IMG/VR virus record: IMGVR_UViG_3300021476_000001
Span: 1 to 64,000 of that record
Reading direction: 5' to 3' (one strand)
Length of the DNA: 64,000 nucleotides
Source of the DNA: a virus
Position numbers and translations under genes: made by a program. Within the stretch, counting starts at the first letter, position 1. Every line of letters starts with the position of its first letter. Of this stretch, positions 1 through 18,482 are shown piece by piece. The notes beneath the pieces were generated by a model. The model saw only the letters and a list, made by a program, of their open reading frames with translations. It made no database searches and was not told the DNA's origin.

Positions 1-909
1 GAAACAGCAGAAGTAGCTGTGGAGGATGCAAAGAAGTTAGGAACTAGAGAGTCTGTTGAGACTGCAAGGAAAGCTATTGAAGATGCAAGAAAAGCTGTTG
101 AAGCTGTAAAAACTACTAAAGCTGCGGAAGGGGTATCTGCAAAAGGTGCTGGAGCGATGGAAGAAGCCGGAGCAATGGAGGGGGCTGGAGCAGCTGGGGG
201 TATTGGAGAGTTAGCTGGTGCCATAGTCCCTATAGTTGGAATAGCTGTGGCTGTGAAGGAGGCTCTTAAACAACTTCGTGAAGGTGTTATGAGTAGTATT
301 CGTGCAATGGGAGACTTTACAGCCGCTGTAGTATCATCAGATGAAAACGTTGCTAATAACATCGGTAGGTTAGGAGAGGGTGCAAAGGCGGTAGGTGATA
401 AATTATTTGATGTTGCACCTGTTGTTAGTATCTTTGTAAGTGCTATAGGAGAAGGAGCCACACAACTTGGTCGGGTGATGAAGGAACTTGATAAGTCTGT
501 AGAGCGCTATGGTGAGTATAGCCCAGTTATAGCTCAGGCACAGGCAGTAGCCGAGATACGTCAGACGATGGGAGACCTTAGACGTGCCCAAGAAGTTGGA
601 AAGACGATGGCACAGTATGTAATGGCTCAGAGTGATTTGCAGCAAAAGTTTGAGGACATAAAAGTTAAATTGATGGTAAAAATAATACCCATTATCACTC
701 GAATACTTGAAGTATTGGAGTTTATCATGCCATCTGGTGAAGGGATTGAGAATGCTATAAATGCTCTGCTTGCCCCACTTAAGGCAATACCAGGGGCAAC
801 AGAGTTAATTGCTCTGACGTTACAAGAGAATATGCGTCCGCCTATTGATGACCCAACTAGCATACTGTTCAAAGAAGGTGGAGAAGGTGTATTAGTACCT
901 CACAGGTGA
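1..909 (+). CDS. virion structural protein, 5' end outside window (Ala/Gly-rich, helical; tape-measure or internal-protein-like)
   Basis: Frame 1 is open from nt 1, so listed ORF 19..909 (in-frame GTG) is probably the 3' part of a longer gene. It is on the same strand as the downstream virion genes and closely spaced with them. Function not recognisable. Confidence 0.5.
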   Translation, partial: ETAEVAVEDAKKLGTRESVETARKAIEDARKAVEAVKTTKAAEGVSAKGAGAMEEAGAMEGAGAAGGIGELAGAIVPIVGIAVAVKEALKQLREGVMSSIRAMGDFTAAVVSSDENVANNIGRLGEGAKAVGDKLFDVAPVVSIFVSAIGEGATQLGRVMKELDKSVERYGEYSPVIAQAQAVAEIRQTMGDLRRAQEVGKTMAQYVMAQSDLQQKFEDIKVKLMVKIIPIITRILEVLEFIMPSGEGIENAINALLAPLKAIPGATELIALTLQENMRPPIDDPTSILFKEGGEGVLVPHR

Positions 910-948: not shown

Positions 949-2355
949 ATGGCTCTGCCGACGTTTAACTTTACTACTGGACCCTCAACGTTAATGGATA
1001 TAGGAACACTTTCCTATAATGGATGTGTATTCTCACCACTGTTTGTCACAACAGTAAGTGGAAAAGCCGTAAAAGACAACGCTCAGCGTACTGTAAAGTA
1101 TATGGAATACTTAATTACTGCTGACGGGTATGTGACAGCTCCTACTAATGTTGCTCTAACTGGGGTAAATGCAACTACTGCGCAGCTACGTAACTTATTA
1201 ACTGCTCAAGGGGGCGCTTTCGTTTATGAAGGACGAGGTTGTGACATAGTGGTTAATCCAGCTGGTGGAGGTGCTGGGGTAGGAGATGTTGTATGGGGAC
1301 CAGTTCCAGAACTTCTAGAGTTCCAACCGCTTGGAGGTGGATTATGTGCAAAGGTTCAATGGCAAGTTAAAGTTCACATCACTGAGGTTCCACAATCTAA
1401 AGGAGGAAGCTTTGTTACTTTAGCCGCTTTAGCCCCCACACTACTCCAGTTTAACTATGAAACAGTTGTAACCTACACTGAAGATGGGTTTAGCGTATTA
1501 TCTGCGAGTGGTACACTAGAGATACCTATGACACGAGTACCATCTCAGAAAACGCGAACACTGACTACAACGGTAGACGCTTTACGTTCGCAAATAGAAA
1601 CTAGAGTTATGACGGGTATTGATCTGACTAGATTCCATGTTACAAATCGAGAGTTTCATGTATCACGTGACAAAAGGACTATGGATTGGAGCTTTACAGT
1701 TGAAGAGAAGCCGTATATGGACTTACCACAGGACTGCACTATTGCACGTGGTACTTATAACGTACGACCTGCTAGAGCTGGTATGGGTCTTTGTTCGTGG
1801 CTCTGTACACTACGAGCAACATATGTAGTTCGTGGTCCATTTAGAAGTATAGACGGGATAAATAACAAGCCGAGGCGTCTTGCTTGGCTTGCTTTTTTAG
1901 CGTTGTTGCGCCTACGTATGGGGCAGTCTGTGCTTGGGAATGTTGTTCCAGATGTAAAGGGCAACCAGAATCCGGCAGCAGCACCAGTAGCCAACATACT
2001 TGGAGCTGGTTTACTCCTTTCAGCAGCAGCAAGTTGGAAAACGTTTCTTAACAAACAGACGCAGGCTCTGGGACCTACAGGTCCAGGAGCAAATGCTTGG
2101 TTAATAGACTTCTCATTTGACGAAGGGCTATATCTAGACTCAAAGACAACATCGTTCTCCGCAACATGGCGACTCGTTACTACATTTAGCCACATACTAC
2201 TTGCTAGCGGTCTTTGGAAGAAGTTGCCAGAGCAAGATGCACAAGGGAATAATATATGGGCAACCTCAATGAATAGTGTATCCAAATCACAATCGTGGTT
2301 ATTAAACCAACTTGATCCTAAGTTGGACGTAATTGTAGACTTTGGTGGTGGGTAA
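949..2355 (+). CDS. hypothetical virion protein (468 aa)
   Basis: Long uninterrupted ORF in the same-strand virion block. The antisense ORFs inside it look like shadow ORFs. No motif I can name. Confidence 0.6.
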   Translation: MALPTFNFTTGPSTLMDIGTLSYNGCVFSPLFVTTVSGKAVKDNAQRTVKYMEYLITADGYVTAPTNVALTGVNATTAQLRNLLTAQGGAFVYEGRGCDIVVNPAGGGAGVGDVVWGPVPELLEFQPLGGGLCAKVQWQVKVHITEVPQSKGGSFVTLAALAPTLLQFNYETVVTYTEDGFSVLSASGTLEIPMTRVPSQKTRTLTTTVDALRSQIETRVMTGIDLTRFHVTNREFHVSRDKRTMDWSFTVEEKPYMDLPQDCTIARGTYNVRPARAGMGLCSWLCTLRATYVVRGPFRSIDGINNKPRRLAWLAFLALLRLRMGQSVLGNVVPDVKGNQNPAAAPVANILGAGLLLSAAASWKTFLNKQTQALGPTGPGANAWLIDFSFDEGLYLDSKTTSFSATWRLVTTFSHILLASGLWKKLPEQDAQGNNIWATSMNSVSKSQSWLLNQLDPKLDVIVDFGGG

Positions 2356-2356
2356 G

Positions 2357-3052
2357 ATGCCATTCACAAGGAATAATACTGCACTAGGTAGTACAAAAAA
2401 GACTGACTTCCTTACAGGTCAGTCCGATCTTGCTATTGGAACCTCTATTGAGAATAATGTTCTGCTTCCCTGGCCTTCAAACCCATTGTCGTCTTGGGTA
2501 TACTTTGATTGCGCTGTTGGTGTAATGCTTGACTCAGGGATAGTAATACATAATCGACTACCACAAGTAAACAATAGATATGATACAATAGCTGTGGCAA
2601 ATTTAGATGACCAAAACTATGACAGTTTCACTGGATTTGGTGTGAACTTAAAATGTTTGGACCAGTATACAGATATTGTCCAACGTATGGGGCACTCAAG
2701 ATACTGGTTTAGAATATGGGGTCAGGCGCTCAGAGTTGGTTATCAGGTGCCTATACCTGGAATTAAGTTAATAGGTGGTACACCCGCTATCCCTTATGAC
2801 AGAAATCCTCAGTGGGGATATAACAGAATAGCACCGGGTGGAAATTACTCAGGAGTTATACTATGGCACGCTCAATGGTCGCTTTGGTACACAACAGCTG
2901 TTCCTCCAACTAGTCAAACCATACCCGCAGCTGACCCGTCAGCACATATTAGTGGAACCACACTACCACCAAAAGGTATACAAGCTCCATATAGTCAGCC
3001 AGATGATAATTCAGAGAACACAGTGTCTTTTCAGGGTATAACTACAAAATGA
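2357..3052 (+). CDS. hypothetical virion protein (231 aa)
   Basis: ATG at 2357 lies 1 nt after the upstream TAA (2353-2355). The listed start 2342 is an upstream TTG. The stop overlaps the next start (ATGA at 3049-3052). Confidence 0.55.
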   Translation: MPFTRNNTALGSTKKTDFLTGQSDLAIGTSIENNVLLPWPSNPLSSWVYFDCAVGVMLDSGIVIHNRLPQVNNRYDTIAVANLDDQNYDSFTGFGVNLKCLDQYTDIVQRMGHSRYWFRIWGQALRVGYQVPIPGIKLIGGTPAIPYDRNPQWGYNRIAPGGNYSGVILWHAQWSLWYTTAVPPTSQTIPAADPSAHISGTTLPPKGIQAPYSQPDDNSENTVSFQGITTK

Positions 3053-4500
3053 ACACAACACAAGCTCAACCTGGAACTAATGGTGACGTAAATATAAATA
3101 ACGTTGCTGATATACTTGAGGAAGAAGTAACTGTTGGATATCGTCCAGTCATGCCACTTGAATCTCTATGGCTCTCTGGCGCTGATATGCCTCAGATTAC
3201 TCTTCGCCGAGACCTAGAGTTTATGCAGATGCACCCGGTCGTAATGACAGCGTTAGAGTATTATAAGTCAGGTATCTATGGTGCAGAGTTCTGGGGTGGA
3301 CCCGATCATATCAACAAGGATAACTTGGAAGGCAAGCCAATATCTACAAACTCTCAAGTGGCCGATTTTGTACTATCACACGTTGAAAAGTTTTGGCAAA
3401 ACGGAATGCCTTTACTTCAGGAGGGTTACGCCTATGGATGGTCTGCTGGGGAGCATATCTATAAAGAAGCAGCCGGGTACATGACTTGGTCCCGCTTAAA
3501 GGACTTTCATCCGAATGACTCTTTTATATTATCACTTGGGTATAACCCAATAGGTGTCCGAGTAAAGAACATACGAGATAAACAACCGGTTGACCTCTGG
3601 TATGCAAGTGGGGCAATACCGGCTAAAGCTTGTTGGTATCCTCATAGACCACGATTTAACTCTCACTACGGAAGATCACAACTGATGGGTGCATGGAGAC
3701 CTTGGCGTCGACTAGGTTGGCGTGATGCAGTAGAACAGGTGATTGATGCTGCTGTATACCGTGCAGGATACAGAGGTCCAATAGTTCGTCATCCAATGGA
3801 AGACATGCAAACTGCCAAGACTGGTATACCAGCTACACAACCTGACAGCGCTGGTAATCCTCGACGTAACGCTCGTGATGTAGCACGTCAGTTAGTGGAA
3901 TGGGCAAAGGCGGGTGCTGGATTTACCCTCTCTAGTGCTAAATACTCACCGGCTATGGGTGGAGGAGACAAATGGAGTATAGAATGGCCTGAGCATGTTA
4001 TGGATGTACGCCCGCTTATTGAAGCTGCAAAGTATCTCGAAGAGCAAATAATGCTAGGTGTAGGTGTTCCTCCTGAGTTGGTACGCGCTGCTGGAACAGG
4101 TACTGGATACAGTGGACGCTCAATACCACGCGAAGCATTCCTAGAGAGACAACAGGTGGTTGCTGAGGCAATGCTTAAGTTGTTTATAGACCAAGTTGTT
4201 CGACCACTGGTTCTATGGAACTTTGGAGATATACCGTTCAACATTTGCTGTAGAAGTTTACTGACCTCTCAAGCAGAGGCGAAGCAAGGTGGTATGCAAC
4301 CGGGTGGACCTATAAACTTTAATCGTAGTGACGCTGCTAAACGTGCTTGGAGACTGAGAAAGATAAACCAGCCACCACAGGAGCAGCAACCTACTCAAAC
4401 ACCACGTGTTAATCAAACTTCACCCATGCCAGCGATGTCGCTTGAAGCTAATGAAAAGGTACTTCAGATAGTTAGAAATGTGCTCTCAAGAGTGGCATAA
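3049..4500 (+). CDS. putative portal protein (Mu gp29 / DUF935-like)
   Basis: Lies directly upstream of a MuF-domain gene, the classic portal-MuF pairing. Segments MQMHPVVMTALEYYKSGIYG, ADFVLSHVEKFW..GYAYGWSAGEHIY and YGRSQLMGAWRPWRRLGWRDAVEQ..YRGPIVRHP fit my recollection of the DUF935 portal family. Not searched. Confidence 0.6.
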   Translation: MNTTQAQPGTNGDVNINNVADILEEEVTVGYRPVMPLESLWLSGADMPQITLRRDLEFMQMHPVVMTALEYYKSGIYGAEFWGGPDHINKDNLEGKPISTNSQVADFVLSHVEKFWQNGMPLLQEGYAYGWSAGEHIYKEAAGYMTWSRLKDFHPNDSFILSLGYNPIGVRVKNIRDKQPVDLWYASGAIPAKACWYPHRPRFNSHYGRSQLMGAWRPWRRLGWRDAVEQVIDAAVYRAGYRGPIVRHPMEDMQTAKTGIPATQPDSAGNPRRNARDVARQLVEWAKAGAGFTLSSAKYSPAMGGGDKWSIEWPEHVMDVRPLIEAAKYLEEQIMLGVGVPPELVRAAGTGTGYSGRSIPREAFLERQQVVAEAMLKLFIDQVVRPLVLWNFGDIPFNICCRSLLTSQAEAKQGGMQPGGPINFNRSDAAKRAWRLRKINQPPQEQQPTQTPRVNQTSPMPAMSLEANEKVLQIVRNVLSRVA

Positions 4501-4501
4501 G

Positions 4502-7500
4502 ATGCAACCTACAGAAACTGAATTAGCTCTATGGGCGAATCAAGTCATGGTTGACTGTCTTATAGAGGCTAATGGAGACGTAAACGTTGGGCTTGCTGCG
4601 GCAGCATACATACTTGAGACTCAGTCGATACCTCTTGCAGTAGACCCACGTGGGCACCACCATAGGGGTAAAGGTGGAGCGCAAGGTGGACAGTTTACTA
4701 GTCCAGGGGTAGGTGAAGGTGACATTGGGCCAGCTACAGGACACCCAAAAACAGCAGGAGGTAAAGGTGGACAATCAAGTCAATCAAGATCAGGAGGATC
4801 AGGAACTGTTCGACAATCTAATGCAGCAGGGCAAGGAGTGGAAGGAGCACCTGGAGCAGCCAGTGATGCAGGCGCTGATAAAGGAGGGCAAGCTCAAGCC
4901 CAGCAGACTGATATTGGGACTGGTGGAAGCGTACAACGAGCACCTAAAGAGCAATCCGCCGCAATTGCCAGGATAGACAAGCTAAGTAGTTGGGCTAATA
5001 GAACAGGCAAGTCATATATATCAATGTGGCTTGGAGACTTAAAATCGCACGTCAACAAGTTTGGTGTAGAGCACTCACTTAAGAGTATGGAGCGTGAAGC
5101 TCCAACAGGCGGTAAGCGCGAACCTGTAGTGTACGACCCAGGAGAGGAGTATCCACAAGACTGGAATGAATATGTTCGTGGGTACCTAAACCACTATGGG
5201 ATAACTTCTCTTTATGACTTACCTAAAGCATCAAAACCGATGGATACTAGCTCTTCTGGTGATACAGTTGGTTTACGTCATACTACTGACGCCGTTCTAC
5301 CAGAGGGAGTGCCAACAAAGGCAGATGCTGATGGCTTAGTATGGTTCTTTGATGGACCAGGGTATGGTAGCTATGGTAAGCATGAATACAAGCTCTCAAT
5401 TCCAAAGGATAAACTCCTTGATTTGGACGATCTCGAACACCCTGAAATACTCAAAGAATACCTAGCTACTTATAAGTCACGTTCAAAACAGAAGGAACAC
5501 GAGTTTGCAACCAAAAAGGGATTTTGGGCTATTAAACGCGGCCAAGACATAGCGATGACACCAGAGCGCGCTAAAGCTCTAATGCAACTTAATGCCCAAC
5601 CGCCAAAGCAGAAGGTTATATCTACTCTTACGCCTAAAGCTCGTGAGAGTCAGGAAGAACCAGCATATCCAGAACATACACAGATAGCCTTCAGACCAGC
5701 GGAATCTGGACTGACTGATAAGCTTAAAGAGGCTAAACATATACCCGGCTTAGAGAGTAGTGAGGACCTTAATGTAATAATAGGAGCACCAGTAACTCAC
5801 ATAAATGACTCTGTTGTTAAAACACTTGATGATAGATATGGTAAAGATGCTTGGATAATAAAACCATATACTGGGGATGCGTTTGCTGGACATGGTATCT
5901 TCTTTCCTGAGAGAGTAGAAGAGTTCCAAAAGCAGCAGAAAGAGCTTATGTGGGATGCTGAGAGAAGTCTAGCCTCTACCGGACTTAGTATGGTAAAAGA
6001 CCAGAAAACTGGAGTTGTTTCTGGGGTACAGAATGAGCAAGGAGACTACTTTAACCTTGACTCTCCAGAATATGCTAAGTTAGCTCAAACCAACCACGCG
6101 CTTGCAAACTTGTCAATAGCACACATGAGGGGGGCTACCAAGGGAATACCACTTTTGGACCGTGAAGGTATGGTCACTGGTAAAGGCTACATGGCACAGC
6201 CTGCATACCAAGCTATAAGTCAAGCAGAGAAAGCGTCACGAGCTGAAGGAGCGCCTTACGCACACACTGAAGCCCGTGTACACGTTATAACTAACAAGGG
6301 ACAAGCTCAAGTTGTTCCTTATGGGACTTTTTACAAGAGACGTCCATTTCCTATAGTTTTTCAAGACAATGACAGCAGAGAGATAGAAAGAGTAGCTCAC
6401 GAAGCCGTAATGAACGTACCTGAGTCTGAACGCCAAGGACACGTTTATGCCCCAGACGTAATAAAGACTCCACAAGGATATAAAGTAGTAGAGCTGAATC
6501 CGTCTAACGAGATAGGGAGTAGTGGACACTTAGGAAGTAACCCACTTATTATAGACGCCTATGTCTCTGCTCTTCAAGGACATAAACCGGGATTCGCTCA
6601 ATTTATTGAAAGAGTATTAACTAAGAAGGGAGCCAAGAGTTCAGAAGCTGCGCTTAGCATGTTCTTTGCCTTCGACATTTATAACAAGCAAGCTCAAGGT
6701 ATCCTGAACCGTGCTCTCAAAGCGGCTAGAGGATTAAGTACCCAAGCCAGAAAAGACTTGGAAAAGGCGTTAAAGAAAGGACCGACTGATAGTGGTGAAG
6801 CAATTCTAAAGTTTATAGATAAATACCGTCTACAACTTTCTAGACTTCTCAGCACAACACAACTTGCCTCGCTATTAGAAGGCGCTCGTGAAGTGGCTAT
6901 TGGTCTACCTACACTTGCAACCTTTCCTGGTGCAGTGCCTCCTCCTCCGTCACTTGAGCCAAAGGAAGCAGTCAAGTTAGTAGAGAAAATAGCCAAGTTG
7001 AGAGACGAGGCGAGAGCTAGGGCAATATACAACTTACCAGAGGACCAACAGACCTACGTCCAACAGTCCATACTCGCAGAAGAGGCAAGCACTCCAATAG
7101 TCCCACCGGCATTCACTCCTCCATCCCCTCCAGAGGGATCGCCCGAAGAGATTCACTTCCCAACTATAGAGAACGCAGTAAAGCACCTCTCTGAGAAGAA
7201 CGTATTAACTCGTGAACGATTCGACGCTGTTGACGCTGCTACTAAGGCTAAGTCATTTACTGTAGCTAGTGTAGACGCTGAAGAAACTCTGACTAAGATA
7301 CGTGACGAACTTGCAGAGAACGTAAGGACCGGAGCCAGCTTCGAGAAGTTCAAGGAGAATGTATTGGACGCAGTAGACCAAGGAACCTTTTTGTCCGATG
7401 CCCACATGGAGACTGTGTTCCGCACAAACGTTCAGAGCGCTTTCTCCGATGGACAGATGGCGGTCTTAAACCACCCACTGGTACGAAGTGGATTCCCATA

Positions 7501-9706
7501 TGCCGTTTACGACTCCATCCACGACAATCGGGTTAGAGACGAGCATCTGGCGCTAGATACACTAGGAATAGACGGGACGAATATATACCGCATAAATGAC
7601 CCAGTGTTTCAACTCTTTAGACCACCTTGGGACTATAATTGTCGTTGTTCATGGATACCTATAACTGTCCGACAAGCCTCGGAATCAGGCATTGCGGAAG
7701 CCCAGGACTGGCTTGAGACTGGCATAGAACCTGTACCACCTGCGTTCGTACCAATGCCAGACTTCCAACCACCAGCTGGCTTTCGGAGAACTATAGAATC
7801 CACACCCCTATCCATACAACTATCAATGCAGTCGCTATTATACTTTTCTCTCAAAGAGGATGACAAGCCGGAAGAGGAGACAGAGACTTCATTGCTCTAC
7901 GGACAATCCGATGGTGCTAGTCCAGCTACTGGTGGGGCTACTGACACTGCTAGAGACCCTACTCCAGGAAGGCGTGTAACCCGTGTAGGACGTCGACGCT
8001 TTGACTATAAGAGGAAGACTACTAAGAACAAGATAAAGAAGAAGTCAAAGAGAAAGTGGGTATACTCACCCGCTCTATCAGTTGATCCATACGGACATGA
8101 GCATGTAGAAAGTGGACCAAAGGGGGGACAATTCACTCCAAGAGGTACAGGTGGAAGTCCTGCGTCAAAAGGACCGCAGCGTGTCGTATCACCTCAACCT
8201 AGCTCTGGGGTGATACAACCAGTGCAACCTAAGACTATTACATTTAAGAAGGGAGCTGACCGTGACCCTTCTATTGTAATAGTTAAGCGCCCTATACATG
8301 AATCAACTAAAGACATATTGACTGGTATTGCTTCACTTGTTAAGAGTGGAGAAGCAATAAATACAGCTAATGGTCGTCGAGTTACTCTTCCGGCACTATA
8401 TTCCGTATTAGCCAACTCTAAAGGAGTGAAGAATTATCCAGTTCGTCAGTTTGTTAGTGATCTGATTACTGTTTGTAGAAGTTCTGCGAACCTAAATACA
8501 GCAACACTTAAGGTGGAGCCAGCAGTTATTGAGGCAAGTAAAAACCCAAAAAAGTCCATATTTTTTCCACACAACGTAAACCTCCCACTCGGAGAAGGTA
8601 GTTATTATCAAGCAGTTACGTTTAATAATAGTAATATGAATGAGTTTTGGAAGATAATGAATCAACAACCAGAACCACAAGTAGGCTTATCAGTAGACCC
8701 GCGTGGCCACCATCACAGGGGAAAAGGTGAGCAAGGAGGTCAATTCACTTCACCCGGAATTGGAGAAGGCAATGTCCCGATTGAGGAGAGGCACACAGTC
8801 AGGAACCCAGCAGCCGCAAAAGACGCCGCTAGAGCGCATCGCAGAATCAGGAGAGGCAGCAGCCAAGGAGGGACTGAAGGAGTCCCTAAAACTGACACCG
8901 GAGCAGCGCAGACTATTCAGCCGGCGCAACCAGTTACAGATCCAAGGCTTGAGGGAACTGCTGGATTCACGAGAGCAAGAGAACTCTTCGCCAACATAAA
9001 CAGTTTAAGAGGATTAGCTAGCTCAGGTGACCCAGAGTATATGAGTCATTTGATGGAGCACCAGAAGAGAGTTCTGAAGACAGCAAGGCAAACAGGTACA
9101 TTTGTAAAAAAGACTAAGTTTGCAAACATTATCAACTCTTCAGAGGACGTTGGTGGTGGCGAACATGAAGTGTATGAGGATGTAATAAACAATAGGTACT
9201 ATAAGTTTACAAGATCAAGTATGAACGCTGGGTTCGGTCTTGATGACGACGTCCATCAGTACCTTCAAAGACTAGAGACTGCTAGTAAGTTATGGCCTTC
9301 ACTTGGATACAAGTTTGAGGGTATTACTAAAAGTGAAGGCGAAGAGTACAAGGGTAGAATAATAGGAAGAGGGCGTCCTCAAGTTGTAATATCTATGAAC
9401 CGTATTGAAGGAGACCACCCAGAACAGGAAGAGATACATCAGTGGTTTCTAAATAATGGTTGGGAGATAGCAAGCACTCCATTTGTACCTAGTAAAGACA
9501 TGCCTAACAGACGTCTAAAGAAAGGTGACCGCGCTTTTCTCGACTGGAGAGACCCGCAGTCGGGAACAGTAGTCGGCGACGCTCATATAGGAAACTTTAT
9601 AAAGACTAAAAGTGGGAATCTAGCTCCTATTGATGTAACTATTACTCTAGGGCCGTCAGGACCACAACCACCTACGCATAGGACGCAAGCGCCCAAACAG
9701 GAGTAA
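4502..9706 (+). CDS. giant polyvalent virion protein: ATP-grasp-like + MuF (SPP1 gp7/Mu gp30) + C-terminal kinase-like module
   Basis: ATG 4502 lies 1 nt after the portal stop (alternative ATG 4478). MuF signature VFRTNVQSAF..YDSIHDNRVRDEHLALDT..FRPPWDYNCRCSWIPIT at about 7255-7670. ATP-grasp-like pattern DAWIIKPYTGDAFAGHGIFF / EARVHVITNKGQAQVV / YKVVELNPSNEIGSSG at about 5760-6570. Kinase-like GDAHIGNFIKT..APIDV at about 9130-9660. Confidence 0.8.
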   Translation: MQPTETELALWANQVMVDCLIEANGDVNVGLAAAAYILETQSIPLAVDPRGHHHRGKGGAQGGQFTSPGVGEGDIGPATGHPKTAGGKGGQSSQSRSGGSGTVRQSNAAGQGVEGAPGAASDAGADKGGQAQAQQTDIGTGGSVQRAPKEQSAAIARIDKLSSWANRTGKSYISMWLGDLKSHVNKFGVEHSLKSMEREAPTGGKREPVVYDPGEEYPQDWNEYVRGYLNHYGITSLYDLPKASKPMDTSSSGDTVGLRHTTDAVLPEGVPTKADADGLVWFFDGPGYGSYGKHEYKLSIPKDKLLDLDDLEHPEILKEYLATYKSRSKQKEHEFATKKGFWAIKRGQDIAMTPERAKALMQLNAQPPKQKVISTLTPKARESQEEPAYPEHTQIAFRPAESGLTDKLKEAKHIPGLESSEDLNVIIGAPVTHINDSVVKTLDDRYGKDAWIIKPYTGDAFAGHGIFFPERVEEFQKQQKELMWDAERSLASTGLSMVKDQKTGVVSGVQNEQGDYFNLDSPEYAKLAQTNHALANLSIAHMRGATKGIPLLDREGMVTGKGYMAQPAYQAISQAEKASRAEGAPYAHTEARVHVITNKGQAQVVPYGTFYKRRPFPIVFQDNDSREIERVAHEAVMNVPESERQGHVYAPDVIKTPQGYKVVELNPSNEIGSSGHLGSNPLIIDAYVSALQGHKPGFAQFIERVLTKKGAKSSEAALSMFFAFDIYNKQAQGILNRALKAARGLSTQARKDLEKALKKGPTDSGEAILKFIDKYRLQLSRLLSTTQLASLLEGAREVAIGLPTLATFPGAVPPPPSLEPKEAVKLVEKIAKLRDEARARAIYNLPEDQQTYVQQSILAEEASTPIVPPAFTPPSPPEGSPEEIHFPTIENAVKHLSEKNVLTRERFDAVDAATKAKSFTVASVDAEETLTKIRDELAENVRTGASFEKFKENVLDAVDQGTFLSDAHMETVFRTNVQSAFSDGQMAVLNHPLVRSGFPYAVYDSIHDNRVRDEHLALDTLGIDGTNIYRINDPVFQLFRPPWDYNCRCSWIPITVRQASESGIAEAQDWLETGIEPVPPAFVPMPDFQPPAGFRRTIESTPLSIQLSMQSLLYFSLKEDDKPEEETETSLLYGQSDGASPATGGATDTARDPTPGRRVTRVGRRRFDYKRKTTKNKIKKKSKRKWVYSPALSVDPYGHEHVESGPKGGQFTPRGTGGSPASKGPQRVVSPQPSSGVIQPVQPKTITFKKGADRDPSIVIVKRPIHESTKDILTGIASLVKSGEAINTANGRRVTLPALYSVLANSKGVKNYPVRQFVSDLITVCRSSANLNTATLKVEPAVIEASKNPKKSIFFPHNVNLPLGEGSYYQAVTFNNSNMNEFWKIMNQQPEPQVGLSVDPRGHHHRGKGEQGGQFTSPGIGEGNVPIEERHTVRNPAAAKDAARAHRRIRRGSSQGGTEGVPKTDTGAAQTIQPAQPVTDPRLEGTAGFTRARELFANINSLRGLASSGDPEYMSHLMEHQKRVLKTARQTGTFVKKTKFANIINSSEDVGGGEHEVYEDVINNRYYKFTRSSMNAGFGLDDDVHQYLQRLETASKLWPSLGYKFEGITKSEGEEYKGRIIGRGRPQVVISMNRIEGDHPEQEEIHQWFLNNGWEIASTPFVPSKDMPNRRLKKGDRAFLDWRDPQSGTVVGDAHIGNFIKTKSGNLAPIDVTITLGPSGPQPPTHRTQAPKQE

Positions 9707-9922: not shown

Positions 9923-11926
9923 ATGGAAGAAGCGTACGGCACAGAACCACCTGACAACTATGGATGGACTGCTGCCGGTCCTATGAGGTGGATTCGTCCT
10001 AAACGTCGTAATCGTAAGAAGCCACTTCCAACTCATAAAGACGGCCCTAACGTAGCTATAATAGGTGGCGGACCTGGAGGACTCTTTGCAACATATATCC
10101 TTAATCAAAGGATGCCAAGTGCAAACATAACTATCTTTGAGGCTAGTTGTCACCTTGGAGGAAAGATTCACACTGACGAGTTCTCTGATGGTACTCCATT
10201 TGAAGCAGGCGTGGCTGAGTTATACGAGTATCTTGGACCTGGTGGCAATGACCCAATGCGTGCCTTGATAGAGAAAGACCTCAAACTTGAAACGGTCAAC
10301 ATATCTGGTGGTGCTGTAATACTCAACGACACTATCCTACGTAACTTAGACGAAGTTAAAGAGGTACACGGTTATGACACCTATAAGCGCATACAAGCCT
10401 TCTATCAGAAGATGGAAGAGTTAATGCCACTTGATAAGTACTCACATAGGTGGCAACCTGACAACGATCACCCTTGGGCGAAAGATGTTTTCAGGAAGTT
10501 TATTGAGGATGAACTTGGTGAAGATGAGATAGCACGTCACTATGTCGAGACTGCTGTTCACAGCGACTTGGCTACTGAGTCCCATACCTGTAACGGTCTA
10601 AATGGTATAAAGAATGTTCTGATGGATAATAAGAAGTATATGCAAGTCTACCACGTGGTAGGTGGTCTTAATCGTATACCTGAAGCGCTGTCTGAGAAGA
10701 TAGAAGCTGAAGTTAAGACCTCCATACGAGTAACTCGTATTGCCCTTATACGTGACTCTGGTGGTGTTTCTCTCAAAAGGCGTAACGGGATGGGAGTTTA
10801 CCGAGTATATTCACTTGAGTCTAGTGAGGAGACCGTAACTGAGCAGTTTGCTGACTTTGACGCTGTGATAGTTGCACTACCTAATCATTGGCTTAGAACA
10901 ATAGGATGGGACGGCTTGCTTGCAGAGGCTATACATAGTGTCTGTGCTCACTATGATCTACCAGCTCATTACTTTCGAGTGTCTATGTTATTTGATACTA
11001 AGTGGTGGGCAGAGTATAAGATTCCAGGTGAGTTCTGGATGATGGATGCGTTTAATGGCTGTTGCTGTTATGATGATAGTACCCGCTGGGATAGACATAT
11101 AAAGAATAGTAGAGTTAAGATAGACGAGGATTTATGGCAGGAGATACTTAAAGTTCTCCCAAAAGAAGTACCAGAAGAGTTACCAACCACAGTTGGAATT
11201 GTTGACGGTGATGTAAAAGTCATAATAGTTGATGGTGGTAAAGTTAAGGTAGAGAAAGATATGGACTTTGTTGAAGGTGGTAACGGCGTTGAAAACCCTT
11301 ACCTTTGTGCTTGGGATGAGGTGTATGTGGATGCTTGTATAAACCCAGAAGACTGGCCTTTTATTTGCTATCACGAGGTAATAGAGCGCCGTGACATGAT
11401 AGATAACAGTATAACACCCGAAACAAGTGACTCTAAAAGGGAAGAGGTTTATCTTAAAGCACATAACAGGGCGAACGCTGCTGAGAAGATACTGAGAATG
11501 CGTGGAACGAGTACTGGTCACGTTCTAAGTTTTTTACTTGCTGGTGGAGACGCTCTATTGATGTGCTCGTCTAATCAGAGCGATGAGTGTATTATAGACT
11601 GTGTGCTTCAGTCGCTCCCATCCTTTATGCGTGAAGAGGCTGAGGAGCATCTAGTAGAGTCACAGATTGATAGGTATGCTGGCTCTATTAACGCACAACC
11701 TGGAGGGTGGCCTGCTGAGGAACTTAGAGGAGAGCATACTCCAGAACCACAGGAGCACCCTGGTGTATTTCTTGTAGGTGACTACTTCTTTGACTCTACT
11801 CTGAATGCTGCACTAATGAGTTCTAATGTTGCCATTGAGTTGCTTTTAGAGTATTTTGGAGAGAAGAGTGCAAAGGTAACGGAGGCGATAGAACTTCTAG
11901 AACCTGATGATAAAGGGTCAATATAA
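9923..11926 (+). CDS. FAD-dependent amine oxidase / PPOX-type flavoenzyme with a large internal insertion
   Basis: N-terminal dinucleotide-binding motif VAIIGGGPGGLFATYIL..ITIFEASCHLGGKIHT. C-terminal GVFLVGDYFFDSTLNAALMSSNVA. These match the two hallmark ends of flavin amine oxidases as I recall them. About 11090-11510 is an insertion I cannot place. Confidence 0.65.
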   Translation: MEEAYGTEPPDNYGWTAAGPMRWIRPKRRNRKKPLPTHKDGPNVAIIGGGPGGLFATYILNQRMPSANITIFEASCHLGGKIHTDEFSDGTPFEAGVAELYEYLGPGGNDPMRALIEKDLKLETVNISGGAVILNDTILRNLDEVKEVHGYDTYKRIQAFYQKMEELMPLDKYSHRWQPDNDHPWAKDVFRKFIEDELGEDEIARHYVETAVHSDLATESHTCNGLNGIKNVLMDNKKYMQVYHVVGGLNRIPEALSEKIEAEVKTSIRVTRIALIRDSGGVSLKRRNGMGVYRVYSLESSEETVTEQFADFDAVIVALPNHWLRTIGWDGLLAEAIHSVCAHYDLPAHYFRVSMLFDTKWWAEYKIPGEFWMMDAFNGCCCYDDSTRWDRHIKNSRVKIDEDLWQEILKVLPKEVPEELPTTVGIVDGDVKVIIVDGGKVKVEKDMDFVEGGNGVENPYLCAWDEVYVDACINPEDWPFICYHEVIERRDMIDNSITPETSDSKREEVYLKAHNRANAAEKILRMRGTSTGHVLSFLLAGGDALLMCSSNQSDECIIDCVLQSLPSFMREEAEEHLVESQIDRYAGSINAQPGGWPAEELRGEHTPEPQEHPGVFLVGDYFFDSTLNAALMSSNVAIELLLEYFGEKSAKVTEAIELLEPDDKGSI

Positions 11927-14602: not shown

Positions 14603-15652
14603 ATGTTCTGTGAGTGTAAAGAGGACGGCTTTTGTAGGCGCTATCAGCGTGAGATGGGTGGACGTATGCGTGAGGTGTGCGCTGGCGTGAACGTAGACAT
14701 CGGCACCTCGGCGGCCTTTAGAGAACAGTGGGCAAGAGAGGTAGAAGTAAATAAGTTTGAAGGTAACCCTAAGTCACTATTACTTAGAACGGACCAAGCG
14801 CCAGGTGACGCTCTTGTAATGACTGCGGCAATCTACTCGCTTCACAAAGCTTACCCTGGTAAGTATGTTACAGCAGTTGAGAGCCAGTGGCCAGAGGTGT
14901 TTGCACATAATCCGTATATAGTCCAAGCTCAGTCTGACTTTGGTGATCTTCATATGCACTACCCTGCTATTCATAAGTCGAACGAGCGTGGTATTCATTT
15001 CATGCAAGGGTGGTGCGAGTTTCTTGGAATGGCACTTGAGATAGATATACCTCTCTTAACTAATCGTCCACACCTATACTTTTCTGACCCTGCCCCACCT
15101 GTTGAGGACTTTTGGTTAATATGTTCAGGCGGTAAGACTGACTTTACTAATAAGTTATGGGGATATCTTAACTATGTCAGGGTTGCTGCCTCTCTAAGTA
15201 GGGAAGTTAAGTTTATACAAGTAGGCAATACTCTAAAGGAACATCCTCGTATAAATACGACAAATGTAACTTATATGGTTGGTCAGACAACACTACGTGA
15301 GTTATTTGACTTAACACGACGTGCTCGTGGAGTATTATGTGGTGTATCTCTTTTAATGCACATTGCAGCTGCATTAGAAAAACCTGCTATAATAGTAGCA
15401 GGTGGTCGTGAACCTGTTCAGTGGAATGCTTATCCTAAACAACATTACATGCACACAGTTGGAGCGCTACCGTGTCGAAGTGTACTAGGTGTAGTAGGTG
15501 GGGCCTGCTGGCGTTCCCGGACAGTAGCGCTTAATGATGGGACTGTACTTGATAAAGACCTATGCGAACGACCAGTTGATGGGACACCAGAGTGTATGAC
15601 GCTTATTAAGCCTTCACAGGTGGCGGCGCTAATCCTGAATTATAATAGATAG
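14603..15652 (+). CDS. glycosyltransferase family 9 (heptosyltransferase-like)
   Basis: LLLRTDQAPGDALVMTAAIYSLHKAYPG near the N-terminus and GVLCGVSLLMHIAAALEKPAIIVAGGREP near the C-terminus match the two GT9 hallmark regions as recalled. There are extra Cys clusters at both ends. Confidence 0.7.
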   Translation: MFCECKEDGFCRRYQREMGGRMREVCAGVNVDIGTSAAFREQWAREVEVNKFEGNPKSLLLRTDQAPGDALVMTAAIYSLHKAYPGKYVTAVESQWPEVFAHNPYIVQAQSDFGDLHMHYPAIHKSNERGIHFMQGWCEFLGMALEIDIPLLTNRPHLYFSDPAPPVEDFWLICSGGKTDFTNKLWGYLNYVRVAASLSREVKFIQVGNTLKEHPRINTTNVTYMVGQTTLRELFDLTRRARGVLCGVSLLMHIAAALEKPAIIVAGGREPVQWNAYPKQHYMHTVGALPCRSVLGVVGGACWRSRTVALNDGTVLDKDLCERPVDGTPECMTLIKPSQVAALILNYNR

Positions 15653-15669: not shown

Positions 15670-15906
15670 ATGACTGTGAAAGAGTTACGTGACTGTCTCT
15701 CTGGATTAGATGACGGTCAAATAGTTCTTATTGACTTGCACTCGTCAACATATCCGCATGGAAGGTCTGTAGAGGTTCAAGGTGTAATTGGTCACCGTAT
15801 ACTAGCACACGCTAGTAATAAACCATTAGACCTTGCACAAATGGATACTCTAGTCAAAGAGAAGCCAACGCCAGATAGTAAGTTAGTAAGAGGAGCTGGC
15901 GCATGA
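15670..15906 (+). CDS. hypothetical protein (78 aa)
   Basis: RBS-like gaggagggg sits upstream of ATG 15670. The stop overlaps the next start (ATGA). Confidence 0.45.
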   Translation: MTVKELRDCLSGLDDGQIVLIDLHSSTYPHGRSVEVQGVIGHRILAHASNKPLDLAQMDTLVKEKPTPDSKLVRGAGA

Positions 15907-17819
15907 CAACAATGTTGATTGCTAACAACTGTACAAGGGAGAATGGGCAGTTTATGGGGGACCAACTGTGTTATATAAAAGTAGCATACCTCTTTGTGCT
16001 GAATGAGCCGAGTGTAGACCACGTAATAATGTCAATGTCGCCAGGAAACGAGATGGACTTTCTTTGGAGGAAGTTTATCGACACTTATAATGTAGAAGTA
16101 ATACATGACTCTCTTAACCCAGGAGACAATGAGGGTCGATGGGTGATGTGGAACAAGTGGCGAGCAGATCGGAAAATAGAAGGTATACCATTTGACCACT
16201 ATAGAGAGTTGTACTTACGCATTCACGGTGGGTTTCGTCAAGCTGCTCTATGCGGTTTAGAGCGTGGTCTAGGTCGTCGTAATATATTTGAGTATATGTT
16301 CTACGGGCAAGAACACATGCCAGAAGGGTGTAATGGAGCAGACTGGTATGATGACTCGTTAATATACCATCCACCTCTTTCGCCAGAACGTGATGTATAC
16401 ATCTCTCCTCACTGTAAGACTCAAGGTAATATCACGTTCACTTTTGACTATTGGACGCAGGTAGTTCAGAAGTTGATAGATGCTGGTATCACAGCAACAG
16501 TAGGTTACGATGGATACTTTTGTGAGCACCTATTAGGTCACCCTTTATATAAGAAGCACTGGGGAGACCATAAGCAGTGGGTTGAGCAGATTTGTAAGCA
16601 TAAGATAGTTGCGTGTGGTAACACGGGATCGGGATGGATTGCAGCTGCATGTGGTGTCCCACTCTTTACAATGGAGCCACCTAATAGTCAGATGCCAGAC
16701 CACAGGTATAGAGAGTGTGGCCTACGGAATATAGTAGAGGTGATGGACACTCCTGACCCGGCCTACTGTGCTAAGCGCTTAATTGAGGAAGTTAATCGTG
16801 TAGTAGTTATGACTACCGGGTGCTATGATGTGCTACATGCTGGCCATATCCGCCACTTGGAACGGTCCAAAGCGCTTGGTACTAGACTTGTAGTGGCGAT
16901 GAACAGTGATAAGAGTGTTCGCCGTTTAAAGGGTCCAGCACGTCCGGTTAACCCTCAAAATCAACGAAAAGCTGTACTTGAGGCTCTGAGGTGTGTAGAC
17001 GAGGTTCGAGTATGTGAAGAGCCACTGGATGTGCTTAAGGAGTTGAAGCCATCTATACTTACAAATGGGTTTGGGTATACACCTGACACAGTAGTTGGTA
17101 AGGACCTAGTTGAGAGTTGGGGAGGTAAGGTCGTAGTAACTTGTTTTGGTGACGCCTCTAACGAGCCATCGACTACGAAGATAGTTAGAAAGCTTTTAAG
17201 GTTGGGGGATATAGTTGAGATTTGTAGAGTTGGTAGTAGATATAGTGTTAATCCTTACGAGAAGCTTAGGTTGATGGCAGACGAGTTTCTTAAAGTTGTA
17301 CACCTTGCTGGAGATGTTGCAGACCTGGGAGCATATCGGGGTGGTACTTCACTAATACTGCGTCGACTAGCTCCAGAGAAAAGACTCTATCTATTTGATA
17401 CATGGAATGGTACACCATTTAACGACGAACTTTGCCACCATAAGAAGGGGGAGTGGCCGTCTAGCTTAGAGGAGTGTCAATCAATAGTGGGTAAGGACAA
17501 GTTAACTATATACTTCGAGGGTATATTCCCGTATGTTGTTGAGAATCAGATAAAGGAGAATGCTTTCTGCTTTGTGTATGTGGATATGGACACATATCAG
17601 TCTACCTGTGATGCAATCAACTACTTTTGGCCTAAGCTGGTGCCAGGTGGTGTTCTGCTTCTTGACGACTATGGGTGGGAACCGTGCGCTGGTGTAAAGA
17701 AGGCAGTAGAAGAGTTACTTCCACCTGACCTATCTAAGTCACCTTGGGCATATAAAAGAAGTATAGTTGACAATTTATATACTTGTGTGGTTACAAAAAT
17801 CTCTGAGATAGTGGGTTAA
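15903..17819 (+). CDS. tri-domain enzyme: GT9-like + heptose-1-phosphate adenylyltransferase-like (HldE C-terminal half) + TylF-type O-methyltransferase
   Basis: N-terminal VACGNTGSGWIAAACGVPLFTMEPP is GT9-like. Central VVVMTTGCYDVLHAGHIRHLERSKALGTRLVVAMNSDKSVRRLKGPARPVNP (about 16800-17210) is colinear with HldE domain II. C-terminal GDVADLGAYRGGTS and VYVDMDTYQSTCDAINYFWPKLVPGGVLLLDDYG are TylF-like. Confidence 0.75.
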   Translation: MTTMLIANNCTRENGQFMGDQLCYIKVAYLFVLNEPSVDHVIMSMSPGNEMDFLWRKFIDTYNVEVIHDSLNPGDNEGRWVMWNKWRADRKIEGIPFDHYRELYLRIHGGFRQAALCGLERGLGRRNIFEYMFYGQEHMPEGCNGADWYDDSLIYHPPLSPERDVYISPHCKTQGNITFTFDYWTQVVQKLIDAGITATVGYDGYFCEHLLGHPLYKKHWGDHKQWVEQICKHKIVACGNTGSGWIAAACGVPLFTMEPPNSQMPDHRYRECGLRNIVEVMDTPDPAYCAKRLIEEVNRVVVMTTGCYDVLHAGHIRHLERSKALGTRLVVAMNSDKSVRRLKGPARPVNPQNQRKAVLEALRCVDEVRVCEEPLDVLKELKPSILTNGFGYTPDTVVGKDLVESWGGKVVVTCFGDASNEPSTTKIVRKLLRLGDIVEICRVGSRYSVNPYEKLRLMADEFLKVVHLAGDVADLGAYRGGTSLILRRLAPEKRLYLFDTWNGTPFNDELCHHKKGEWPSSLEECQSIVGKDKLTIYFEGIFPYVVENQIKENAFCFVYVDMDTYQSTCDAINYFWPKLVPGGVLLLDDYGWEPCAGVKKAVEELLPPDLSKSPWAYKRSIVDNLYTCVVTKISEIVG

Positions 17820-17822
17820 TAA

Positions 17823-18482
17823 ATGGACGACTTAATTACTCAGTATGATGAAGACTATTTCCTTCGTGGGAAGGAAACTGGTAAGTCCTTATATGAGAAC
17901 TATAGGTGGCTACCCAAACTTACGATTCCAATGGCTAAGAATATAATTGCTCGCCTTGGAATTGAAGTTGATATGACTGTGCTTGACTATGGATGTGCTT
18001 GTGGATATACAGTACGTGCGTTACGTGAAATAGGTATAGAGGCTTTTGGCGTTGACATCTCAGAGTGGGCTATTAGAAATTGCGATCCAACAGTAAGAGA
18101 GTGGGTTGTCCAGGGTAGTGAGATACCTCCAGGTATTGACTGGATTATTGCTAAGGATGTACTAGAGCATATACCTGATGTAAAGAGTGTAATAGATAAG
18201 ATGATGGACTCAAGCGCTGTTGGTATATTTGTAGCTGTACCATTATCGTTGGTAGACGGACAGGCATATGTTATACCAGACTATGAGAAAGATGTGACTC
18301 ATGTTCACCGCCTTACTCTAGCTTCGTGGGTACGGATGTTTATTCGGCATAAATGGTCGGTTGAGTGTTGCTATAGATTTAGAGGGGTAAAAGATAACTA
18401 TCATGGATGGATGTCGTGGGTAAAGTCCAACTATGACTTGTGGCAACACGGGAATGGGTTTATCATTTGTAGAAGAGTGTAA
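17823..18482 (+). CDS. class I SAM-dependent methyltransferase
   Basis: VLDYGCACGYTVRALREIGIEAFGVDIS matches the motif I / post-I pattern. A downstream DWIIAKDVLEHI segment is typical of this fold. Confidence 0.65.
   Translation: MDDLITQYDEDYFLRGKETGKSLYENYRWLPKLTIPMAKNIIARLGIEVDMTVLDYGCACGYTVRALREIGIEAFGVDISEWAIRNCDPTVREWVVQGSEIPPGIDWIIAKDVLEHIPDVKSVIDKMMDSSAVGIFVAVPLSLVDGQAYVIPDYEKDVTHVHRLTLASWVRMFIRHKWSVECCYRFRGVKDNYHGWMSWVKSNYDLWQHGNGFIICRRV

Follow-up and report, generated by a model that had tools for sequence, protein, structure and literature searches.

The locus and its long open reading frame

The window analyzed here is a 64,000-nucleotide stretch of viral DNA (positions 1 to 64,000 of IMG/VR virus record IMGVR_UViG_3300021476_000001), and the subject of this study is one long open reading frame (ORF) in it that encodes a polyvalent phage head protein of 1,734 amino acids (aa) with a MuF core. 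The polypeptide also carries an ATP-grasp ligase module, a minimal protein kinase and a further module, termed module B, in three cassettes that each open with the same type of junction peptide (Table 1). The protein is polyvalent in that unrelated effector-type domains stand in one polypeptide and are shuffled among its relatives. A preliminary description of the stretch, made from its sequence, had reported a single ORF after the portal gene that combined MuF, ATP-grasp-like and kinase-like parts with a very basic tract and at least two modules that it could not name. The ORF was found as claimed, all of the quoted strings occupy the expected positions in the translation, the basic tract is present, and the modules without a name are the inserted module at aa 255-365 and module B. 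The three domain calls are supported with the caveats described below, and profiles or structures provide evidence for every one of the named modules.

The frame is open from 4478 to 9706 and contains no stop codon within 5.2 kb. An in-frame ATG at 4478 is an alternative start that would lengthen the protein by 8 residues. In the public gene call P0001 (1,734 aa, 100% identical) the start is at 4502, and a single base separates the stop codon of the upstream ORF from this ATG. The upstream ORF matched the phrog_113 portal profile (expect value (E) 3e-4) and Pfam Portal_Mu (E 0.0045), and by tblastn it matched the portal genes of Geobacillus phage GBK1 (E 8e-6) and Rhodococcus phage Reynauld (E 2e-4) at approximately 21% identity.

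The preliminary description had allowed that the long ORF might join separate genes through an error of assembly. Such an artefact of assembly or gene calling has nothing in its favor except the unusual length and mosaic make-up of the ORF, and we regard it as extremely improbable. An assembly artefact is very unlikely because the exact 1,734-aa protein is present on two contigs (73,889 and 74,000 bp; record sources JGI, Logan and ENA) and because P0002, a 1,580-aa protein from NCBI, carries the same blocks in another order with 40-66% identity by BLAST block mapping. The absence of stops over the entire frame and the many relatives of 1,000-3,000 aa that are built alike also argue against it. 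A megablast search of the ORF against 50,697 GenBank phage records gave no nucleotide match.

Table 1. Features of the MuF-type head protein gene and its neighborhood, with positions in the window and in the protein.
Feature	Residues (aa)	Positions	Strand	Basis or remark
Probable portal gene		3049..4500	+	Directly upstream; weak but consistent portal matches
Whole ORF, polyvalent MuF-type head protein		4502..9706	+	ATG 4502; 1,734 aa + stop
N-terminal peptide of MuF core	1-44	4502..4633	+	Local hidden Markov model (HMM) architecture table, BLAST block mapping
Cassette 1: junction motif, Gly-rich leader, helical domain, insert, ligase	45-715			Between N-terminal peptide and pre-MuF
Junction motif copy 1, LAVDPRGHHHRGKGGAQGGQFTSPG	45-75	4634..4726	+	Motif searches, alignment
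Gly/Ser/Gln-rich leader after motif 1, contains GVEGAPGAASDAG		4727..4963	+	Composition profile
Helical domain	155-245	4964..5236	+	Aligns with N-termini of stand-alone family members; predicted local distance difference test (pLDDT) ~71-92
Inserted module	255-365	5264..5596	+	BLAST to P0004, E 4e-25; common to P0004 only
ATP-grasp ligase module	395-715	5684..6646	+	Family alignment, R2K_3 matches in relatives, AlphaFold/Foldseek
WIIKPYTGDAFAGHGIFF	451-468			Read from sequence
EARVHVI	590-596			Read from sequence
VVELNPSNEIGSSG	662-675			Read from sequence
Pre-MuF helical/Pro-rich region, core part	716-890	6647..7171	+	P0002 comparison, architecture table
MuF domain (Pfam match aa 932-1051)	895-1075	7184..7726	+	Pfam, phrog_220, TIGR01641
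RVRDEH	1010-1015			Read from sequence
PPWDYNCRCS	1041-1050			Read from sequence
Post-MuF conserved extension	1076-1123	7727..7870	+	Representative-library matches
Very basic tract	1157-1186	7970..8059	+	Read from sequence; specific to this protein
Cassette 2: junction motif, short leader, module B	1192-1395			After post-MuF and basic tract
Junction motif copy 2, LSVDPYGHEHVESGPKGGQFTPRG	1192-1222	8075..8167	+	Motif searches, alignment
Module B	1239-1395	8216..8686	+	P0068, ~290-aa family, alignment A6
Cassette 3: junction motif, leader, kinase	1396-1725			After cassette 2
Junction motif copy 3, LSVDPRGHHHRGKGEQGGQFTSPG	1396-1426	8687..8779	+	Motif searches, alignment
Leader and helical linker before kinase, contains GTEGVPKTDTG		8780..9043	+	Between junction motif copy 3 and kinase
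Minimal protein kinase, Kinase-PolyVal type	1515-1725	9044..9676	+	Pfam, relatives, catalytic residues
GDAHIGNFIKT	1692-1702			Read from sequence
APIDV	1708-1712			Read from sequence
Amine-oxidase flavoprotein		9923-11926		Directly after head-protein gene
GT9 heptosyltransferase-like protein		14603-15652		Downstream block
Cytidylyltransferase-TylF methyltransferase fusion		15903-17819		Downstream block
S-adenosylmethionine (SAM) methyltransferase		17823-18482		Downstream block

The MuF core

The MuF core comprises approximately 470 aa and consists of the N-terminal peptide, the pre-MuF region, the MuF domain and the post-MuF extension, which are contiguous in minimal relatives. The local HMM architecture table shows that the N-terminal peptide directly abuts the pre-MuF region in P0002, P0065, P0079 and others. 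MuF is the only domain for which the protein itself passes a curated Pfam threshold: Phage_Mu_F (PF04233) scored 49.3 bits against a cut-off of 29.6 (E 9e-13, aa 932-1051), in agreement with the canonical MuF core recognized in the preliminary description. The phrog_220 profile, 'minor head protein and DNA pilot', matched with an E of 8e-34, and the NCBIfam model TIGR01641 (phageSPP1_gp7) matched with an E of 7e-9 at 36 bits, just below its cut-off of 39.65. When aa 716-1133 were used in a tblastn search, 250 phage records were matched, annotated as head or virion morphogenesis proteins. A ligase-free query (aa 1076-1734) was also searched against a representative library of 1.84 billion proteins, and many of the matches to query positions 1-41 sit directly after MuF domains.

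The region from aa 711 to 1119 is 66% identical to P0002. In that protein the cassettes are placed after the MuF core, not before it, and there is no counterpart of the very basic tract. Searches with the whole protein gave no match in PADLOC, and the MuF-type TIGR01641 alone in NCBIfam. The segment-wise HMM search proposed in the preliminary description, run with the whole protein and with eight segments against Pfam at E up to 10, returned only MuF and a sub-threshold kinase match. Support for MuF and for no other module, which that description had named as the outcome that would count against it, is therefore what is found when the protein is searched alone, and it is not what is found when homologues and structure are included.

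The ATP-grasp ligase module

The ligase region of this protein has no Pfam match, even as an isolated segment at E up to 10, and the ATP-grasp-like call of the preliminary description is borne out through homologues and structure. A profile search gathered a ligase family of 35 proteins (E 1e-66 to 1e-126), and Pfam recognizes the ligase module in one C-terminal fragment alone among these members (P0039, PF14243, precomputed). In the family alignments, K454 (WIIK), the Gly loop AGHGI at 462-466 and the MAQPA hinge are invariant or nearly so. The E590-x-R592 pair, which reads E590-A-R592 in this protein, is invariant across the family, and D652 (APDV), E664 and N666 (VVELN) are invariant in alignment A2. 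K407 (DKL), located 47 residues before K454, is nearly invariant and is a candidate for the linker Lys. The helical domain is a constant companion of the ligase family, and every stand-alone member has it.

The AlphaFold model of aa 155-720, which was built on 28 sequences, has a pLDDT of 78 and a predicted template modeling score (pTM) of 0.75, with the ligase part mostly above 85. The top 50 Foldseek matches of this model in the PDB are all ATP-grasp proteins (E from 2e-4, probability up to 1.0) and include D-Ala-D-Ala ligases (Ddl), BacD/YwfE, PurK, biotin carboxylase, GAR synthetase and RimK. The TM-scores are low (0.2-0.4) because the model is multi-domain and contains a large insert. The module is accepted as a member of the ATP-grasp superfamily. 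At the level of sequence, profiles A1 and A2 of the ligase found no meaningful match among the PDB sequences; two NDUFA7 matches (E 0.6) in the PDB-sequence profile searches of the ligase, the kinase and module B were dismissed. No significant match to the model was found among viral predicted structures, the best being a CroV tubulin-tyrosine-ligase-like protein (E 0.048), and tblastn of the ligase against the GenBank phage records gave no match.

The closest Pfam profile is that of the R2K clade (Cdc123, DUF4343/PF14243; Burroughs, Zhang and Aravind 2015, PMC4431377), with which the ligase family shares the ExR and ExN motifs. R2K_3 (PF14243) was matched weakly by 5 of 22 relatives (best 8.4e-6) and was not matched by this protein. 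The ExR motif is a mark of ATP-grasp ligases that form peptide-like bonds (PMC4431377), and, to judge from this motif, the family sits among such ligases. In the R2K clade, by definition, the ssxGbGl loop has been lost and a second Lys/Arg stands just after the strand-2 Lys (PMC4431377). Membership in the clade was rejected on both features: the family retains a Gly-rich loop AxAGxGI (A66, A68, G69, G71 and I72 nearly invariant in alignment A2; DAFAGHGI in this protein), and the stretch from K454 to the Gly loop lacks a conserved basic residue in every aligned member. The near invariance of K407, the N-terminal helical domain of its own and the large lid insert further set the family apart from R2K. 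The R2K clade was proposed to include phage members that modify host proteins (PMC4431377), and the 2015 paper and a 2021 paper mention R2K ATP-grasp enzymes in phages as stand-alone genes only.

The family-specific lid insert spans approximately aa 469-560. Its helix and beta-hairpin unit is tandemly duplicated in P0002 (aa 601-711), P0006, P0035, P0043, P0050 and others. Since the insert is tandemly duplicated and is also the site at which the kinase is nested in some relatives, variation is concentrated there, and the insert may be where the substrate binds. As a payload, this ATP-grasp ligase family appears to be new; no Pfam model is dedicated to it, and it is unmatched in 50,697 deposited phage genomes.

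The C-terminal kinase module

The preliminary description had proposed a kinase-like C-terminus from the catalytic loop, and this call holds by way of the relatives. The protein itself scored 14.1-17.5 bits against Kinase-PolyVal (PF18762), which has a cut-off of 27 (E 0.004 at 17.5 bits). All five of the aligned relatives match Kinase-PolyVal (best 1.1e-9), with precomputed matches for P0036, P0040 and P0041 and matches above the cut-off for P0042 and P0050. K1568, D1693, N1698 and D1711 are invariant in alignment A5, and the sequence GGGEHE is located at 1551-1556. The catalytic spacing read from the sequence is D-x4-N-x12-D (D-N 5, N-D 13), and D166, N171 and D184 of protein kinase A (PKA) have the same D-N and N-D spacing. 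Features of Kinase-PolyVal include a missing C-terminal subdomain, a Glu ahead of strand 2 and a Gln in the final N-lobe strand (Iyer, Burroughs, Anand, de Souza and Aravind 2017, PMC5512222; cited throughout for the parts of that survey drawn on here). In this protein the chain ends 23 residues past D1711, which fits the loss of the C-terminal kinase subdomain; E1554 is invariant, and Q1626 is present in four of the five sequences. The truncated core, the Glu before strand 2, the D-x4-N pattern and the DFG-like Asp near the end are all shared with Kinase-PolyVal, and the alignment supports placing the C-terminus as a probable branch of this family.

The structure model is confident for the kinase part only. 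A Foldseek search with the kinase model listed many protein kinases, none of them significant (best MerTK, E 0.022). Profile A5 of the kinase had no meaningful match among PDB sequences, and tblastn of the kinase against the GenBank phages found no match. A DNA_pol_alpha_N match (E 0.008-0.03) that overlaps the kinase region was dismissed as chance.

The ligase and the kinase are a recurrent pair

The ligase-free query described above matched 171 representative proteins at E<=1e-3, and the kinase region is present in 52 of those fetched. The ligase family, together with its helical domain, is found in 25 of these 52 kinase-bearing representatives, and in 24 of the 35 that are at least 600 aa long. 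In 18 of the 25 there is no ligase segment after the kinase; mostly the ligase is followed by the kinase, commonly with 60-100 residues between them. In the other form the kinase is nested inside the ligase (7 of 25, plus P0036). The nesting point corresponds to approximately aa 500 of the window protein; this position is in the lid insert, which is flanked by the Gly loop and the adenine-binding hinge. Among the closest kinase relatives almost every one has the ligase, and the pairing is kept at 35-50% identity.

The ligase and the kinase are thus a recurrent coupled pair. The preliminary description treated this combination of domains as unusual; the pairing of the two enzymes turns out to recur in many uncultured phages, and what is unusual in the window protein is the presence of the MuF core and module B between them. 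The association with an ATP-grasp ligase distinguishes this subfamily from Kinase-PolyVal as described in 2017, where, in the passages drawn on here, it was not found (PMC5512222). A literature search on Kinase-PolyVal, PF18762 and PF14243 gave nothing relevant beyond the 2015 and 2017 papers. The coupling is seen in at least 25 protein clusters and provides a testable activity pair together with catalytic residues to mutate.

The pair, or the ligase without the kinase, is found on several carriers. A Portal_Mu-ligase-kinase fusion is present in P0063 and a portal-ligase fusion in P0003, and fusions of the MuF core to the ligase occur in eight fetched proteins and two IMG/VR loci (for example P0087, P0099, P0111, P0129, P0172, P0186, L013 and L014). 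Topoisomerase-like and SAP regions are further carriers of the pair or of the ligase. On a 50-kb phage contig (L019), a stand-alone ligase gene lies approximately 1.2 kb downstream of a polyvalent portal gene. That portal gene (L019 5518-8808) encodes a 1,096-aa protein in which the portal is fused to 2',5'-RNA-ligase-like (2H) and topoisomerase IB domains, and it represents another head-internal carrier with payloads in this phage group. A gene that adjoins a stand-alone kinase on L018 was considered as a ligase candidate and is not the ligase.

The two enzymes could alternatively be independent effectors with unrelated targets, which occur together because a few phage lineages share their ancestry. 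The ligase often occurs without the kinase, no ligase is present in 27 of the 52 kinase relatives, the two modules are far apart and in separate cassettes in the window protein, and the representatives come from metagenomes and are of unknown relatedness, all of which would fit such a reading. Against it, 8 proteins carry the kinase within the lid of the ligase, an arrangement that arose besides the tandem form. The lid of ATP-grasp enzymes covers the ATP site, and a nested kinase would sit there. The pair also spans portal, MuF, topoisomerase-like and SAP carriers at 35-50% identity, and is near universal among the closest kinase relatives. We consider independent effectors unlikely, and the ligase and kinase are viewed as a functional pair because relatives keep both of them side by side or nested.

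A conserved junction peptide opens each cassette

The junction peptide has the consensus [LF]S[VT]D-x-x-G-H-[EHQD]-H-[KR]-G-K-G-x-G-G-G-Q-F-[TV] and was found in approximately 48 instances in approximately 30 fetched proteins. Its D, G, second H and GGQF positions vary little or not at all. The motif is placed right after the N-terminal peptide, right after the post-MuF extension or ahead of payloads, and low-complexity sequence follows it; in P0014 it stands between the ligase and an HNH domain. Copy 3 of the window protein is predicted to be disordered (pLDDT ~26-31). Copies 1 and 3 have 87% DNA identity over a 39-nt seed. Their codon alignment contains 15 synonymous differences and few replacements in the core, with unrelated flanks, and selection on the peptide is indicated because the synonymous differences so outnumber the core replacements. 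A recent DNA duplication or recombination scar was excluded as the origin of the motif by the same 15 synonymous differences and the unrelated flanks. A Glu-specific prohead-protease site was also considered and is weakened, as the Glu of GHEH is His in copies 1 and 3.

A second element, G(T/V)EG(V/A)P..D(T/A)G, is present in the leaders at 4835-4873 (aa 112-124) and 8870-8902 (aa 1457-1467), approximately 60 residues past motifs 1 and 3. In P0002 it follows each of the two junction motifs at the corresponding place, and it was not seen in the other fetched proteins. A different repeated junction-type peptide, W..GP..G.GW (GMVGDEWHGPTAPGPGWVQVGQGERGGKVWKQQ, GNPWQAYTGSRGGRGWKNAATGRVMY), is found in P0068 (aa ~90-125 and ~375-410), where it flanks module B, and also in P0004 and at L018 1605-2954.

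The placement and conservation of the motif raise the question of whether the ORF is a polyprotein that is cut at the junction motifs into four or five proteins, before or after packaging. In that case the single chain would be only a format for synthesis and delivery, a version that is compatible with the mechanism proposed below rather than exclusive of it. The motif is found ahead of every payload, it is conserved at the level of the peptide in spite of the many synonymous differences between copies 1 and 3, and disorder is predicted for it, with low-complexity leaders coming next. Processing has been documented for DdrB and DarA of phage P1 and proposed generally for polyvalent proteins (PMC5512222). 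On the other side, no protease domain was detected in the ORF or its neighbors, the metallopeptidase that Iyer et al. invoked for processing (PMC5512222) is absent here, and the His/Asp pattern fits metal binding or docking equally well. Cleavage of the chain into separate proteins is therefore judged possible but doubtful, and the single chain as a mere format for synthesis and delivery no less so.

By analogy, the favored reading of the junction peptide is a processing or hand-over site, and its Asp/His pattern may also suit metal-mediated docking. Polymorphic toxins have pre-toxin motifs such as VENN in CdiA and DPxGL in Rhs proteins. The junction peptide appears analogous to these in that a short conserved peptide borders a constant carrier and an exchangeable payload. 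It differs from VENN and DPxGL in its sequence (LS[VT]D..GHEH[KR]GKG.GGGQF), in the several copies per protein and in its location in phage head proteins. No description of the motif was found in a literature search. With this peptide as a marker, payload cassettes can be sought in further giant phage proteins, and it is also a candidate processing site.

A proposed mechanism of action in the infected host

The explanation that we favor, and consider probable, is that the protein is a polyvalent MuF head protein whose paired ligase and kinase payloads act in the host after ejection. The MuF core would serve as the carrier and would associate with the portal and the capsid interior, and the three payload cassettes would have been spliced into this core, each opening with a junction peptide and a low-complexity leader. 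The protein would exit the capsid with the DNA and meet cytoplasmic ATP. The ligase would be of the carboxylate-amine type and the kinase of a minimal Ser/Thr/Tyr type. The kinase would phosphorylate a host target, and the ligase would add an amino-acid-like or peptide-like group, most likely to the same target. The result would be that a host defense is disabled, or that a host machine is redirected, at the very start of infection. The junction peptides would most likely act as processing or hand-over sites at which the modules come apart or unfold. The position of the gene and the analogy with known MuF and polyvalent proteins suggest delivery into the host; for polyvalent proteins, packaging and delivery along with the DNA have been proposed (PMC5512222).

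Few phage-injected proteins have known chemistry. Injected proteins act before phage gene expression and are therefore prime candidates for counter-defense. A more elaborate version of the proposal holds that a two-enzyme injected effector is carried on MuF or portal proteins and that the two enzymes cooperate on one host target, for example by phosphorylation coupled to ribosome-independent amino-acid ligation, with the junction peptide as a pre-effector signal and module B as a decoy. Taken as a whole, this version is rather unlikely.

The main alternative is that the enzymes act late, in the producing cell, on phage structural proteins, phage DNA or host factors, in which case only the MuF core, or nothing, would reach the capsid. 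The gene sits among late genes, the downstream block of modification enzymes suggests that virion or surface modification chemistry is encoded in the region, ATP is available in the producing cell and absent from the capsid, and stand-alone ligase genes without a carrier exist. On these terms it is hard to explain, unless location in the head matters, why the ligase has been fused repeatedly and independently to portal and MuF carriers, whether or not the kinase accompanies it. An argument of this general kind has been advanced for polyvalent proteins as a class (PMC5512222). We regard such late action as improbable.

Several observations weigh against an injected enzyme pair. The ligase and the kinase are separated by approximately 800 residues in the window protein, unlike in most relatives. 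Most of the ligase relatives found with a word-index search are stand-alone proteins of approximately 400 aa without a kinase, and one stand-alone ligase gene was found on a 1-Mb contig from a metagenome-assembled genome (MAG) of Planctomycetota, with no phage head genes within 10 kb; since such stand-alone ligases exist, the ligase can work without a kinase or a virion carrier. The protein itself remains below the Pfam thresholds for both enzyme modules, and the structure search with the kinase did not reach significance, MerTK being the best match. Because the defining features of R2K are absent, the closest named family of the ligase offers no functional lead. As for release of the payloads, the replacement of the GHEH Glu by His in two of the three junction motifs speaks against a Glu-specific prohead protease, and Pfam searches of the ORF and neighboring ORFs revealed no protease domain.

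Relation to known systems

The protein resembles the MuF-anchored polyvalent proteins surveyed in 2017 in that it is a very large late-gene product encoded beside the portal, with a MuF carrier, several unrelated effectors, a Kinase-PolyVal domain and extensive domain shuffling (PMC5512222). It differs from them in three respects. Its ATP-grasp amide-ligase payload lies outside the effector classes of the main text of that survey, where ATP-grasp is named for RNA ligases only, and these as unassociated with polyvalent proteins (PMC5512222). It has no metallopeptidase for self-processing of the kind set out there, and its payloads are introduced by a conserved junction peptide, for which no description was found in a literature search. 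The ATP-grasp amide-ligase payload, its conserved coupling with the kinase, including the nested forms, and the junction peptide appear to be new.

With SPP1 gp7 and Mu gpF the protein shares the MuF domain and the gene order of portal followed by MuF. These two proteins are approximately 300-450 aa long and are not known to carry enzyme payloads. In contrast, a 670-aa insertion divides the core of the window protein, and a further 610 aa extend it.

Module B, the inserted module and the downstream genes

Module B matched P0068 in the representative library with an E of 5e-25. Over its final ~120 residues it is homologous to the C-terminal domain of proteins of approximately 290 aa, a family with the motif EPAVIENTKNPKKSIF.P...GEGTYYQA. 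The ~290-aa family had no match in Pfam, PADLOC, NCBIfam or the PDB (profile A6). Its gene comes first in operons that also encode two BrxD-like ATPases and a DEAD/ResIII/Cas3-like helicase (L003-L005, for example L004 1005-6723), and in P0134 the family is fused to a BrxD/SngB-like ATPase. The operon is a putative host system and looks like a Shango- or BREX-related defense system without a prior description. Module B may be a phage copy of a defense subunit that acts as a decoy, and its link to BrxD and the helicase suggests a route by which phages could copy defense subunits.

The inserted module at aa 255-365 has no Pfam match, is absent from the other members of the ligase family apart from P0004, and was modeled by AlphaFold with low confidence. 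It might have an ADP-ribosyltransferase (ART)-like fold. A relationship to the ART-like C-terminus of P0003 was considered and set aside, as BLASTP was negative and the model is of low confidence. The insert starts with GLRHTTD (DLVHTSQ in P0004), and its GPGYGSYGKHEYKLSIPKDKLLDL stretch resembles a module that follows the junction motif in P0098.

Downstream of the head-protein gene is a block of enzyme genes that may function in virion or cell-surface sugar chemistry. A tblastn search with two of the downstream ORFs gave no match in the GenBank phages. Past the SAM methyltransferase gene there are two small ORFs, followed by a weak SPASM match. A GT9 gene is located downstream of the head-protein gene on the P0002 contig as well.

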